Made by a program: the position numbers and the translations under genes. The notes under the pieces are model-generated. The model was not told where the DNA came from. It worked only from the letters and a program-made list of their open reading frames with translations, and did no database searches. From Torpedo marmorata (lineage: Eukaryota): a stretch of DNA of 64,000 bases. The stretch is from NCBI GenBank assembly GCA_977017645.1, contig OZ360223.1:221154001-221218000 (forward strand). The letters run 5' to 3'. Below, one piece after another: positions 3,570 through 42,707 of this stretch; position 1 is the first letter of the stretch; each line of letters opens with the position of its first letter.

Positions 3570-4454
3570 CTACAAAAGAAGCAAATCCATTCAGTGAGAA
3601 CATTACAAATCCTTTGCTGAAAAATGAACTATTACTTTGTTATCCATTTCTGGCTCAGGGATCAGCGAGGGATCACTGTTTGATAATCATCTAAAATGTT
3701 CATAATCGCAAAAACTAAAACAAAAATAAAGTTCAGGTGAAGGTCCAATGTAACTTTTCATTGCAAATTACAGGCAAAGATAATTCTTCATATTCATTTT
3801 GTGAAACTCAAGGATCCAACACATTTTATTTCAGCTTGGATCAATCTGGCAGCCATCATTTACTGTTCAAATATCATTCCATTGTTCATGATGGAAAATT
3901 AGCAGTTTGCATTCAATGTTCACATGAGCAAGACCACTGAATTTGGCCACTATAAACATAAAATTTCCTCTTGCTCTATTGAAGATTTAAGGAGATCTCA
4001 ACCTTCCAGGTTTAGCATTCATTGTTGTTTTTCTATTCTTCAGGTTTTCTCTCACGTGAACCATTTCCTCTGGAACAAACTGACAAGCCCTGCCATTCTT
4101 AAGGCAGCATTAACGACATTTTCAGAGTTTATCCCTCCCTGCCAACATGCCTATCACAATAGGAATCCAAGATTATGTACCAGATAACCACTCTGGCACA
4201 CGACTATAAGGGGCGCCGGGCAATTTCTGCTGATGGCAAATCATTGTCTGCCTTACAGTAGACTAAATGAATTTGTGTAATATTACATTTGTTTTGTTAC
4301 ATGACAATAAAAGAATCTTGACTAAAAGAAATCAATTGATGAAGCAGAGATCTGAAGTAAACAATATCTTATTTATGGGACTTCTAGGAAGCAATTGATT
4401 GCTTTTGGATTTAAACAGTAGGAAAAAAAAGAGACACCACTGGCAATTACTAAC

Positions 4455-14035: not shown

Positions 14036-14415
14036 ATGCATCATCAAGGATCCACACCACCCAGCACACACTCTGTTCTCACTGCTACCATCAGGAAAGA
14101 GGTATAGGTGCCACAAGACTGGCACCACCAGGTTCAGGAACAGCTGCTACCCCTCCACCATCAGACACCTCAACAATAAACTCAATCAGGGACTCATTTA
14201 AGGACTCTTACTTTTGCAATTTATTGTTTGTTTTTTTCCTCTCTGTATTGCACAGTCAGTTGTTTACAGTTCTTTCTTTGTTTACACGTATACACTGTGT
14301 ACAGTTTTTTGTGCACTACCAATAAGAGATAATTCTGCCTCGCCCGCATGAAAAAGAATCTCAGGGTTGTATGTGATGTCATGTATGTACTCTGACAATA
14401 AATATGTAATCTGAA
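14036..14415 (+). mobile_element. Rex1/Babar-like LINE 3' fragment
   Basis: Near-identical to 36458-36840 (IIKDPHHPAH...RFRNSCYPSTIR plus 3' UTR). Confidence 0.8.
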
Positions 14416-14558
14416 TTATCAGTCCATGTTAGTTGATCTCAGGAGAATAAATATGCCCAGAATATCCGAGTTGGTGACAGACAGAAATAATGTCAGGTAT
14501 CACATTCTATTAAACAAATCCCACCTTCCCCTAATCCAGTCCCAGTCTTTTCACTCAC

Positions 14559-20574: not shown

Positions 20575-21260
20575 CAAGATTCAATTTCTTTTTGCCTGCT
20601 GCAAGGCAGACAGATTCGCCACTGGCAGAAATTGCCTAAGCGCCTCTAACATTCCTTACAGACAGAGAAAGAGAAGCAAAAGAAAGTCCCCCCAGAGTTA
20701 CCGAGTGTCCAGCCACACAGAGTCCAGTCCAAACCATCGGCATCCCGAGCTCCAGACCCGAACCTCCAACACGGTCAGGTCGCCCTCGGCACCCCCTCGC
20801 ATCCCGGTTCCGATACCTGGTACTCCTCCAGCCAGTTCGAGCTAGCCTCCAGCAGTCCGCAGCCCGGCGTGAGTCCCCCGACAGCAGTCTCCAGCAGCCC
20901 ACAGCCTCCACGGGTTCCTCGCCTCGAGTCGCCAGCAGCCCGCCGCATGCACTGGTCCTTCAGCCTCAGATCCCCTCACCGGTCCACTGCCCTGGTCACC
21001 GTCCCGTGGGACGTCTCCTCCGCTTCTTCTCAGACGGGGGTGATGTTCCCGTCCTCTGGTGCCCTGCTCCAGTCCTCCGCTTCCCCGGAATCTGCAGCCC
21101 CTCGTGGCTGCTGCCGGTTAAAAGGCGCTGCCATCTTGGGCGCAGACCCCGTGGTCGCGGGATCTTAAATAAAACCACCGTCGGCTCCTTTAAAGGGCCG
21201 TTCAAAGCCCGTGCGGAACCGACGGTAGTCGACTGGGCGGCTGGACCCCGCGGGAGATTT
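20575..21260 (-). mobile_element. GC/CpG-rich non-coding retroelement with LINE-type tail
   Basis: Interrupts the CR1. Its minus-strand 3' end ggcaatttctgcc...tgtctgccttgcagcaggcaaaaag...gaatcttgaa resembles the tail at 4210-4322. Confidence 0.55.
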
Positions 21261-29797: not shown

Positions 29798-30337
29798 CAG
29801 TGAAACCCCGATTTAACGCAAATTCGGATATAACGCGATTACAGCACCAATAGCCTGAATACAACTGGGATTGTCTGATCTCAGAAGCTAAGCAGGCACA
29901 GGACTGGTCAGTACTTGGAGGGGAGACCGCCAAGGAACACCAGGTGCTATAGGTTTCTGTGAGGGGTGCTGGACAAAATAGCGACCCTCTGTCTACCTTA
30001 CAGTAGACAAAAATTAAAGAATTTCATGTATGTTACATTCTAAATGTAGTATTACGTGACAATAATGGAACCTTTACCCTTTATGAGTCATTGGACCTGC
30101 TGATCAGCCTGCGCCGTCTGCCCGGGCTCCCAGCAGGAGCGGGGGCATCAGGCTCCCGGATTAATTTAAAATGCATACAAAATAACTGGGATGTTCCAAA
30201 TAAAGGAGAAATGGAAATAATGTAGGTATGCAAATTAAACAGGGAAATACAGTGAAACCCCGATTTAGCGCGACCCCGCTTTTTTCGCAATGAGATTTTA
30301 TGGACCCCAACGATCACGTTATAACGGGGTTTCACTG
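29798..30337. mobile_element. Tigger/pogo-type MITE inside the RTE
   Basis: TA|CAGTGAAACCCCG ... CGGGGTTTCACTG|TA splits the RTE reading frame at LMY|GCESW. An extra internal TIR copy sits at ~30250. Confidence 0.85.
29844..30083 (+). mobile_element. 5S rRNA-derived SINE (SINE3-type), copy 1
   Basis: GTCTGATCTCAGAAGCTAAGCAGG...CTGGTCAGTACTTGGAGGGGAGACCGCC...GGTGCTATAGG is 5S-like, followed by an unrelated ~130-nt tail ending in CCTTTA repeats. Confidence 0.88.
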
Positions 30338-35044: not shown

Positions 35045-36840
35045 ACTTATACTTGGCTCTACACAAAGCCCTGGAGCACCTGGACACCAAAGATGCATTC
35101 ATCAGGATGCTCTTTATCGACTACATTTCGGCATTTAACACCATCATCCCCTCAAAACTGATCAGCAAACTCCAAGACCTGGACTCAACACCCCACTGTG
35201 TTCCTAATCCTTTTCTTGCCCTGTTTGGAACAAGTAAGCCAACTGGCTTGAATTTGTCTGGACTACAATCCCGTGTAGTTGCCTTTGCTCTCCTTATTGC
35301 TAGAAGAGCTATATTAGTGAGATGGAAAGATGCTGTCCCTCTTACGCATATTCAGTGGCTATCTGATGTGATGGCATGCCTGACTTTAGAAAATATTAGA
35401 TGTTCTACTACTGAAATGAATTTAACTTTATAAGTTTATGGGGTCCTTTTCTTGATTATTTTCATAATTTGTAAGATTATTTAGATCCCGTTTTGTGGTT
35501 TGGTTGTTTTCCCTTTTACAGTAGTGGAACACATGTTCAACCAATAACTTCACAAGGGAGGGGTTAGATTATTAGTATAATTTTTACATGTTGTGTCTTT
35601 TTTCTGTTTTGTCTTTTTCAATGTATCATAGGTTATTTATAGCCATATGTAATTGTATATCTACTTTGTTGGATAATTATTCTTATTATTATTACCTATG
35701 TATGATTTACTTATAAAACTCAATAAAAATATTGAAAGAGAGAACACCCCACTGTGTAATTGGATCATGAATTTCCTCACCTCCATACCACAATCAGTGA
35801 GGATTGGTAAGAACGTCTCTTTCACAATCTCAATCAGTACCGGAGCACCACAGGGCTGCATTCTTCGCCCCCAGCTGTACTCACTTTACACCTACGACTG
35901 TGTGGCTCGGTACGACAATAACACCATCTACAAATTTGCCAACGATACCACTGTAGTGGGTTGTATAAAGAAAGGCGATGAGTCAGCATACAGGATGGAG
36001 ATTGAAAACTTGACTGAATGGTGCACTAACTCAATGTCACCAAAACTAAGGAGCTGATTGTTGACTTCAGGAAGGGAAAACCAGAGGTGTACGATCCAGT
36101 GATCATTGGGGGATCAGGGTGGAGAGGGTGAGCAAATTTAAGTTCTTGGGAGTCACTATCGGAGGATCTTTCTTGGACCCAACACACTAATGGCATCGTG
36201 AAGAAAGCACGTCAGCGCCTCTACTTCCTCAGGAGTTTGCAGAGCTTTGGTATTACATCAGAAACCCTGGCAAATTTTTACAGATGTGTTGTGGAAAGTG
36301 TGCTGACCGGCTGGATCACGCTCTGGTATTGGGGACACCAATACCCCTGAGCGTAAAGCCCTCCAAAAGGTAGTGGACACAGCCCAGGACATCACAGGCA
36401 AAACCCTCCCCACTATCAAGAACATCTACAGGGAACGCTGCCGTCGGAGAGCAGCAGCAATCATCAAAGATCCACACCACCCAGCACACACTATGTTCTT
36501 GCTGCTGCCATCAGAAAAGAGGTATAGGTGCCACAGGACTCGCACCACCAGGTTCAGGAACAGCTGCTACCCTTCCACCATCAGACTCTTCAACAATAAA
36601 CTCAATCAGGGACTCATTTAGCTACTCTACTTGTGCACTTTATTGATTTTTTTAAATTCCCTGTATTGCAGTCAGTTTGTTTACATTCGTTATCTGTTTA
36701 CAGCTCTTTATTTGTTTACATGTGTACAGTTCTCTTTTGCACTACCAATAAGTGGTAATTCTGCCTCGCCCGCAAGAAAAATCTCAGGGTTGTATGTGAT
36801 GTCATGTATGTACTCTGACAATAAATCTGAAATCTGAATT
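35045..36840 (+). mobile_element. Rex1/Babar-like LINE, 5'-truncated
   Basis: [22 protein letters not shown] and [10 protein letters not shown] motifs; tail (atctga)n. Confidence 0.88.
35202..35742 (+). mobile_element. L1-clade 3' fragment inserted in the Rex1
   Basis: [11 protein letters not shown]...[13 protein letters not shown]-terminus, AATAAA tail. 15-bp TSD AACACCCCACTGTGT at 35187 and 35743. Confidence 0.8.
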
Positions 36841-39745: not shown

Positions 39746-42470
39746 TAACTTATTTTCACACTTTCTTCTGTGCTTTGATGCCCATTCACACAAATAGCTT
39801 AAAACATACCTATTCCAAAAAGTATTCATTTTGTAAAAACAATCACCCTTTCCCCCACCTTGGCTCTCCAGACTAACTTGTTTTTCTTTGTTTGACAATG
39901 AATTCAAAGCCTAAAGCAATACACGTATCTCTTTCCACAGGTTCTGCTGAACTTGCTGAGTTTCGTCAACATTGTTTTTATTTCATATTTCCAACATCTG
40001 TAGTTTTAACTTTTATATAATAATCTTCTGACTTCAATTTGACCTGAAAAGTAATGCATGCTATGAATGTTTTAAAATTATTTGAAACCAGCACTTCCAC
40101 AAGGATACAAGACGAAGTCCTGCCATTTGTTAGCTTCATGGCAGTAAGCCTACTATATTATCACATGGCTATGAAAACTTCCTGGATACAAATTTGGGAT
40201 TGTGCTTTGTACATTATAATAGTGCTAAATTTCAATATGCTTCATTGATTGTAAAACACATTGGGACTTTCTGAAAGGGAAGTGAATTTCTATAAATGTT
40301 TTATTTTGGTAGAATATTAACTCTATTTAAGGCAGCAGCCCAGGCAATCTCATGAAAAGAGTTTTAAGCAATTTTTATGCAATCACATTTTGTCCATATT
40401 CACTAATCCTATTTGCCTGCCTAATTAAGTGACCAGACAATTTTAACTATGTATGATTCCATGTTTCAGCATCCATCATGTTGGGGACTGCTTTAATCAT
40501 ATTTAAAAGAGTCATCTAATCATTTGGACATATGACTGTCTGCAATTAAAACTTATATGTTCACTTCTCAGTGGGGAGTTCCAAGATTAGGACAGCAATG
40601 ATGAAAGAATGGTGAGTTATTTCCAAATCACAATGGTCTGCAATTTTTTTGTGGGAGCTACAAGTTAGGCTGGAAACCATTTGTAAGTGACAAGTCTTCC
40701 CACTTGTACACTGTCCTTCTCAGTGGGAAATGTGAAGGGTTCGGGAGGTCTCTAAGAAGTATTAACAGATGAAGTGGCAGACAACACATCCATAATACAA
40801 TATTGCAAGTTAAGCAAACTGATTTGAATAATGCCCAGCTTCTTGAATGTTGCTGGAGCTGTGAAAGTGGAGATTACATCACCCAACCTACGTGTTTCGT
40901 TGATGGTGGAAAGAATTGAGTCATGCTGCGACTCACTCTCCTGTGTTTTGCTAACAAAAAAATGGCCTCTCTCTTTGCTGGGACAATAATCCAAGTTCTG
41001 TGTACTCAATTATGCCATCTTAAAAGATTCTAGTCTTATTTTTAAAAGGAGAATGGGTGACCTGAGCATTCCGCAAAATGTTTATCAATTAAACTGGATT
41101 TATTTTTTTAATTGAGATAATGTGGCAGGAAAGTAGCCAGCAGAAGAGTAGTGCAGTTTCCAAAGACAAAAAGGTGGCAAATGTCTGACACCATTGTTGT
41201 AGAGAAGCAGCAGTTATTGAGGTATTTTATTAACAGAGACATTGAATACAAGAGCAGGGAGTAATTGAATTTAGAGAAAAGATTGGCTAGATTTTGCTGG
41301 AGAAAGGGTGTCTGAGGTGTACATGATGGAAAGGCCAAGCTAACATCTCTTCATCCCGTTTCTTTAATAGATATATCAACGCTCGTGAAGGGTAGAACCA
41401 TAAAACATTGCAGCTCATCTAGTCTGTGCCTAACTGTTATTCTACCTAGACCCACTGACCTGCACTCAGTCCATCGCCCTCCATACCCCTCCCATCCATG
41501 TACCTGACCAAATTTTTCGTAAATGTGAAAATTGAGTCAGCATTCACCACTTCAGCTGGCAGCTTGTTCCTCAATCCCACCACTCTGTGTGAAGAAGTTC
41601 CCCCTTAACCCATGTCCTCTGGTGTGTATCTCACCTAACCTCAGTGGAAAAAGCTGACTTGCATTTACTCTATCTATACCCCTATCAAATCTCCTCTCAT
41701 TTTTCTACACTCCAGGGAATGAAGTCCTTATCTGTTTAACCTTTCCCTGTAACTCAGTTCCTGAAGTCCTGGCAACATCCTAGTAAATCTTCTCTGCACT
41801 GTTTCTATCTTATTGATATCTTTCCTATAGTTAGGTGACCAAAAGTGCACACAATTCTCCAAATTTGGCCTCACCAATGTCTTACACAACTTTACCATAA
41901 CATCCTATACTCAATAGTTCGATTTATGAAGGCCAATATGCCAAAAGCCCCCTTTACAACCCCACCTGACACACCACTTTCAGGGAATTCTGTATTCCCA
42001 GATCCCTCTTTTCTATGGCCCTCCTTGGTACCTTACCATTTACCATGCATGTCCTACTTTGGTTTATCCTTCCAAAATGCAACACCTCACTTGTCTGCAT
42101 TCAATTCCATCTGCCATTTTTTAGCCTATTTTTCCAACTGGTCCAGATCCCTCTGCAAACTTTGAAAGCCCTCCTTGGTGTCCACAACGCCTCCAATCTT
42201 TGTCATCTGCAAATTTGCTAATCCAATTTACCACATTATCATCCAGATCATTGATATAGATGACAAACAACAATGGTCCCATCCCTGAGGCACACCACTA
42301 GTCACAGACCTCCAGTCTGAGAAGCAATCATCCACTACCACACTATGGCGTCTCCTGCATAGCCAATGTCGAATCCACTTTACTACCTCACCATGAATAC
42401 CAAGCGTCTGAACCTTCATGACTATCCTCCCATGTGGAAAATTATCAAAGGCCTTACTAAAGTCCATGTA

Positions 42471-42707
42471 AAGGTAAAGGTTCCATTATTGTCACATAAT
42501 ACTACATTTAGAATGTAACATACATGAAATTCTTTAATTTTTGTCTACCGTAAGGCAGACAGAGGGTCGCTATTTTGTCCAGCGCACCTCACAGAAACCT
42601 ACAGCACCTGGTGTTCCTTGGCGGTCTCCCCTCCAAGTACTGACCAGTCCTGTGCCTGCTTAGCTTCTGAGATCAGACAATCCCAGTTGTATTCAGGCTA
42701 TTGGTGC
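42471..42707 (-). mobile_element. 5S rRNA-derived SINE, copy 2
   Basis: Near-identical reverse complement of 29844-30083; interrupts the CR1 motif VV-YMDFSKAFD. Confidence 0.88.

Follow-up and report, generated by a model that had tools for sequence, protein, structure and literature searches.

Recently amplified 5S rRNA-headed SINE family in Torpedo marmorata with a likely Rex1-clade LINE partner

SINEs headed by 5S rRNA are rare and made up 2.3% of the first SINEBase release, as given in PMC10946416. Those of the SINE3 class, such as zebrafish SINE3-1, AmnSINE1 and salmonid OS-SINE1, share a 5S head with its promoter boxes kept, a diverged upstream part (as described in PMC10886601) and a LINE-type tail. 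According to the account in PMC3747384, these three are DeuSINEs with CR1-group tails (CR1-4_DR, RSg-1). Pairs of tRNA- and 5S-headed SINEs on a common LINE-derived 3' part are described as CoeSINE4/CoeSINE5, HaSE1/HaSE3 and Ped-1/Ped-2, those of the coelacanth and the springhare being reported as bipartite, with LINE 5' and 3' parts (PMC5786205, PMC3747384). Bipartite non-autonomous LINEs, namely Bov-A, RIME and NARTc, are likewise short LINE 5'+3' units able to gain a small-RNA head; in the account of PMC5786205 the reported sources of such elements are RTE, Ingi, Vingi and R2 only, and the Repbase survey described there found no LINE 5' ends in SINE bodies other than those of RTE and Vingi. 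PMC3747384 tabulates a single SINE partnered by a Rex1 element (Rex1-24_NV), namely SINE2-5_NV of a sea anemone, but it has a tRNA head and a cnidarian host, and a LINE 5'-end body is not reported for it in that source. HE1 and SacSINE1 of sharks and rays, which likely share the host lineage of the element described here, differ from it in having tRNA heads, V or Deu domains and CR1-type partners (PMC3747384). A 5S SINE from a cartilaginous fish, or one with a Rex1 partner, is absent from the lists in PMC3747384, PMC7245038 and PMC10946416.

Here we describe a recently amplified 5S-headed SINE family of Torpedo marmorata, two copies of which lie in the window, i.e., the whole stretch of 64,000 nt that was analysed. 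Both stretches are members of the known class SINE3. The element is about 247 nt long and comprises a diverged 5S head, a body of 36 nt and a tail of 92 nt. This body and the Rex1-type tail set it apart from the known SINE3s as they have been described, and the 36 nt between head and tail would leave no room for a DeuSINE, CORE or V-SINE central domain. Whereas the LINE part of CoeSINE4/CoeSINE5, HaSE1/HaSE3 and Ped-1/Ped-2 is RTE, that of the present element is likely Rex1, which would be an unusual partner for a SINE3. Our literature search, which covered sources other than the supplementary SINE lists of PMC5786205 and PMC7245038, returned no description of this family; it may already be held in Repbase, Dfam or automatic genome libraries.

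Two near-identical copies had been reported in the window by an earlier note made from the sequence, and both were found in their places (Table 1). Copies A and B differ at 7 of 238 positions (97.1% identity), and both match the Rfam 5S rRNA model RF00001 above its gathering score (48.2 and 43.6 bits). The same note had them start at one and the same nucleotide, which was wrong: copy A runs from 29840 (5S nt 4) and copy B from 42707 (nt 8), and full-length copies elsewhere (L006, L025) begin at 5S nt 1, seven bases ahead of the start that had been proposed. Each copy had also been described as the innermost layer of a nest. Copy A is nested in a TIR element that in turn lies within a LINE; copy B is seen embedded in the coding region of a LINE. 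The TIR element hosting copy A was found in other organisms' runs too.

Table 1. Positions in the window of the two SINE copies, their parts and related elements
Feature	Position	Strand	Remarks
SINE copy A, whole (element nt 4-247)	29840..30083	+	Rfam match, pairwise comparison
Copy A, 5S rRNA-derived head	29840..29955	+	25/116 positions unlike genome's 5S gene; only three T left of terminator T-run
Copy A, box A (5S nt 50-60)	29886..29896	+	Same as genome's 5S gene
Copy A, box C region (5S nt 80-97)	29916..29933	+	Three changes, T84G among them
Copy A, body	29956..29991	+	Predicted hairpin; common to tRNA-headed sister and GC-rich clan; possibly Rex1 5' terminus
Copy A, tail	29992..30083	+	Rex1-type end; two predicted hairpins, GACAATAA at 30058 followed by short repeats of CCTTTA type
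SINE copy B, whole (element nt 8-245)	42470..42707	-	Head 42596-42707, body 42560-42595, tail 42470-42559
TIR element hosting copy A	29798..30337	.	TA flanks; TIR present once more internally, at 30250
Older relative: GC-rich non-coding retroposon	20580..21207	-	3' end homologous to SINE body and tail; tail partly deleted
5'-truncated GC-rich clan copy	4230..4322	+	72% identical to SINE tail
Broken Rex1-like LINE 3' part	35677..36840	+	RT and PF09004; family B tail; end compared by the earlier note
Second such Rex1-like LINE end	14040-14417		

In this genome of 6.2 Gb, a 21-nt pattern across the head/body junction had 18,228 exact matches, a lower bound on the number of copies. The reversed pattern, used as control, had 0 matches, and chance is thereby excluded. 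A DNA search gave 2,014 candidates, of which 40 were scored; every one was 97-100% identical, and they were spread over many contigs. Sixty arbitrary 10-kb stretches (600 kb) contained four near-full copies and one truncated copy, and 5 matches per 600 kb agrees with a few tens of thousands of copies. For the age estimate, 40 stretches of 10 kb were taken around junction matches listed for the beginning of contig C1. The 41 copies in them average 2.3% from their own majority (range 0.4-5.2%; 1.7% outside CpG), and 21 of them start at nt 3-7. Derived bases at positions 27, 47, 96 and 142 mark the subfamily to which the window copies belong. In a sample biased in favour of window-like copies, one pair agrees at every position of nt 9-232 and has unrelated flanks. 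The proposal of a recently active 5S-headed family is thus borne out by the high copy number and the low mean divergence. The composite structure is uniform, in single dispersed copies with unrelated flanks.

The majority head of 75 near-full copies matches the genome's 5S gene at 96 of 119 positions and differs at 23, with 13 changes in 44 positions upstream of the control region, 7 in 53 within it and 3 in 22 after it; the difference between upstream part and control region is not significant (Fisher p 0.076). The putative internal type-1 promoter boxes are kept, as had been claimed earlier for box A and a box C-like region: box A is unchanged from the genome's 5S gene, the intermediate element has 1 change in 6 and box C 3 in 18 nt. 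We consider it likely that RNA polymerase III transcribes the element from this internal promoter of the head. The head terminator is shortened to three T; copy A is devoid of a T4 run, and the first T4 downstream is at 30280. Base pairs of the head were scored with a list drawn from what we take to be the general eukaryotic 5S structure, all 36 pairs of which are valid in the genome's own gene. In copy A, 7 of 12 changed pairs are broken and two of the kept pairs are at CpG sites; selection on 5S folding was ruled out on these grounds.

Could the copies be dispersed 5S pseudogenes, or a variant class of 5S rDNA with its spacer? The genome's 5S array is on contig C25 (47 scored loci), and the tail did not match the spacer in the 12 loci of this array that were compared (best E 0.52), so the tail is not 5S spacer as far as this one array is concerned. 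Stingrays are described as having two 5S rDNA classes (PMC3123226) and the comparison here is with one array, which leaves some room for such an origin. Against it, every copy seen is single with unrelated flanks, a T4 terminator is absent, changed 5S pairs are mostly broken in copy A, and the identical type of tail is found under a tRNA head and at the end of a retroposon clan. We therefore regard a pseudogene or rDNA origin as very improbable, and treat the copies as a SINE. In the array itself (L031-L042, 86.2-86.6 Mb), units are mostly about 3.2-3.8 kb apart, and the spacer of L031, read by eye, has apparent LINE fragments and a tRNA-like stretch.

A tRNA head was present on the SINE's own body and tail in 3 of 30 loci fetched for tail variants. 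For these three, ARAGORN called tRNA-Thr(TGT), tRNA-Ser (a mutated copy) and nothing, respectively, and the Rfam tRNA model matches two further sister copies. The tRNA/body junction had 1,478 exact matches, and the 13 full-length heads among 20 fetched copies are 3.2% from their own majority. Each of the two sisters, 5S-headed and tRNA-headed, has derived bases in body or tail. The tRNA-Thr(TGT) sister (L153-L172, L073, L095, L101) has a short leader ahead of the tRNA and occurs with two junction variants.

Over their whole length, body and tail together can be aligned with the 3' end of retroposons that are GC-rich, non-coding and about 670-900 nt long; identity is 78% to L150 and L118 and averages 74% over 20 copies. 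The 5S head is joined immediately after the pyrimidine tract of these elements. This clan (L114, L118, L150, L102) is abundant, includes several subfamilies and has Rex1-type tails. Judged by these alignments, the closer source of the SINE tail is the non-coding retroposon clan, rather than the LINE end with which the earlier note had compared it.

The family was also looked for in runs of other organisms, the comparison being of four runs out of 23 from 13 studies. Contigs listed for organisms C and E bridge the 5S/body junction, many contigs of organism B extend across head, body and tail, and the tRNA/body junction is bridged by contigs listed for B, C and E. Because the family is present in these runs as well, the term young is limited to the copies and the subfamily. 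In B, C and E the bases at head positions 62 and 67 are like those of 5S, a signal to which contigs of true 5S may contribute, and the body has bases resembling the clan's, which suggests that the head drifted within a SINE lineage.

Rex1 elements are described as having a single ORF with AP endonuclease and reverse transcriptase (RT), no ORF1, and a conserved 3' UTR with short repeats (PMC6274825, PMC13343379); their coverage is reported to be highest in rays (PMC13343379). The candidate partner LINEs of this genome fit the Rex1 clade in architecture. They have a single ORF, a 1038-codon frame from the 5' end, with RT and PF09004 above cut-off and the endonuclease below cut-off. The label Rex1 rests on this architecture rather than on a reference sequence: the 120 homologues listed did not include a named Rex1 reference, and teleost relatives are about 55-65% identical. 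One full-length single-ORF family is very young, its first 454 nt being 99-100% identical at 39 or more other places. The three copies fetched (L316 325-3600, L317 and L318, on contigs C30, C25 and C22) have open 1038-codon frames, which start at the fourth base of the element, and the family is probably still active.

The end motif G(A/G)CAATAAA, which the SINE tail shares, follows 48 of 79 Rex1-like ORF ends as compared to 2 of 85 CR1-like ends, in a sample with only 2 RTE-like ends; the labels CR1, RTE and L1 on the sampled ends are our own presumption. At the level of the clade, this supports the earlier suggestion of a Rex1-like LINE as partner. The particular LINE end that had been named matches just weakly, with a local score of 49 against the SINE tail where the shuffled maximum was 45. 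A profile of 20 clan tails gave the SINE 36.6 bits and the best true Rex1-like end 8.0 bits (E 0.17). A DNA search with the tail and three patterns yielded copies of the SINE, truncated ones, its tRNA-headed sister and members of the clan, and nothing else. None of the tail candidates examined (30 of 1,703, 30 of 674, 30 of 57 and 11 of 11) proved to be an autonomous LINE whose tail matches closely. The youngest Rex1-like family has another tail repeat than the SINE and is without the first tail hairpin.

Mobilisation through a LINE from a different clade (CR1, L2 or RTE), with the tail motif convergent or inherited, would agree with vertebrate SINE3s being described as CR1-clade or RTE-dependent in PMC7245038 and PMC5786205. 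A specific Rex1 partner was not found in our searches, and the sampled ends included just 2 RTE-like ends and no L2-type. On the other hand, the motif is in 2 of the 85 CR1-like ends, and the clan-tail profile reports 35 of 79 Rex1-like, 6 of 88 CR1-like and 0 of 41 L1-like ends, mostly with weak scores. We regard another clade as improbable, and the SINE as likely copied by the reverse transcriptase of a Rex1-clade LINE.

Two unrelated observations were made on the fetched loci. In L187, the stretch directly behind a young CR1-like tail, downstream of a CR1-like ORF end, resembles what we take to be a reversed U6 snRNA. L200 (1-10000) is filled by a GC-rich tandem repeat with a 21-nt period and has very long open frames on both strands.

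The 3' end of the SINE is constant, with short CCTTTA-type repeats, and the 5' ends are variable. Repeats of at least 6 nt flank 6 of 72 near-full copies as compared to 2.8 expected from shuffled flanks, in keeping with the remark that there was no obvious target site duplication. Empty paralogous host sites were located for 43 of 110 copies. By rough offsets, 21 of these overlap by 1-8 nt, which would reflect either microhomology with the tail or a short target duplication, the join is blunt in 3, and 19 miss 1-32 nt of the target; at the empty site of copy B (16 paralogous host matches), about 3 nt of target were lost. Zebrafish L2 has been described with blunt joins, target truncation and microhomology (PMC2666801). 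One position of a LINE was hit twice by independent SINE insertions, in paralogous LINE copies at window position 42469 and in L025. At three loci, two of them duplicates of one event, a fold-back or inversion is placed at the first tail hairpin: L256 has at about 1430-1600 a palindromic insertion with two tails folded back at this hairpin, and L257 and L258 have a copy with an internal inversion there, doubled by local duplication. These loci suggest that the first tail hairpin forms during copying.

Full-length Rex1-like elements open with two short blocks, GGCGCC and GGCGAC-T(C/T)T(C/T)TG, 6-10 nt apart. These blocks follow one another in the same order in the SINE and clan bodies, and stop at the point where the tail hairpin begins. 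As scan motif we used the two-block 5' terminus of the young Rex1-like family, which had been located from the ORF rather than by the motif. In 600 kb, 48 sites scored at least 15/19: 28 belong to one satellite, 8 (the top site included) are SINE or clan bodies, 3 are another position in the clan, 1 is a mini-element and 8 are unrelated. The body is the best or tied best motif site in 14 of 22 clan elements, which are mutually related. Deletion copies of Rex1 with joined 5' and 3' ends also occur: in L293 and L320 the first ~70 nt of family B are joined to the family B 3' end (90-97% and 72-92%). In L115 6480-6585 (+) and L310 4660-4770 (-), units of ~100-110 nt have a Rex1-type start joined directly to a GACAATAA-type or similar LINE-type end. 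The clan copies L322 and L324, chosen by pattern, retain an ATG-bearing start.

The body could also be read as just a part of the longer clan 3' region of a SINE3 with a Rex1-type tail, its likeness to the Rex1 5' end being chance among short GC-rich motifs. The bodies of the window copies match LINE 5' ends no better than shuffles (87-460 of 1,000), and LINE termini were absent among the best 60 matches listed for a profile of 19 clan bodies, which was not biased by the motif. The same shuffle test gave 3-104 of 1,000 for the tRNA sister and 14-229 for the independently chosen L150; its best cases (L174, L102, L221) were selected by the motif itself. The motif is also non-specific, as 15 of 30 fetched matches were an unrelated GC-rich repeat, and the clan has a weaker version about 111 nt upstream. 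What speaks against chance is the enrichment of bodies among the top motif sites, the exact stop of the motif at the start of the tail hairpin, the direct joining of the same kind of start to a LINE-type end in L115 and L310, and the ATG-bearing start of the two pattern-picked clan copies. We hold a chance likeness to be possible though rather doubtful, and lean slightly towards the body being the 5' terminus of a Rex1 LINE, with body and tail forming a putative minimal 5'+3' Rex1 unit. Two candidates for a Rex1 start were rejected. The closest-looking family with the 5' motif proved to be an unrelated repeat inside an apparent LTR element, a label that is our assumption, and L310 is an element of ~110 nt with a separate LINE piece behind it.

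Taken as a whole, we are fairly confident that the copies represent a dispersed SINE of 5S head, body and tail that is likely transcribed by polymerase III and likely moved by the reverse transcriptase of a Rex1-clade LINE. Its 5S head may have been joined by template switch to the last ~128 nt of a GC-rich clan member. Polymerase III would pass the shortened terminator and stop at a T-run in the flank, the Rex1 ORF protein would bind the tail hairpins, and priming would take place at a nick, with the tail repeat paired there to a few bases of the target. A further scenario, which we put forward tentatively and at somewhat less than an even chance, is that Rex1 spawns minimal units (a 5' terminus of ~30 nt with 70-90 nt of 3' end), and that such a unit, borne by the clan, captured 5S and tRNA-Thr heads, giving rise to the first Rex1-mobilised 5S SINE. 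If true, the 128-nt body and tail would define cis-signals of Rex1. If the proposed origin of the body is true, Rex1 would be the third source of LINE 5' ends in SINE bodies, after RTE and Vingi. The 5S/tRNA pair on one tail offers a clean natural comparison of two promoter types, and tens of thousands of young insertions, partly common to other organisms, would be useful presence/absence markers.
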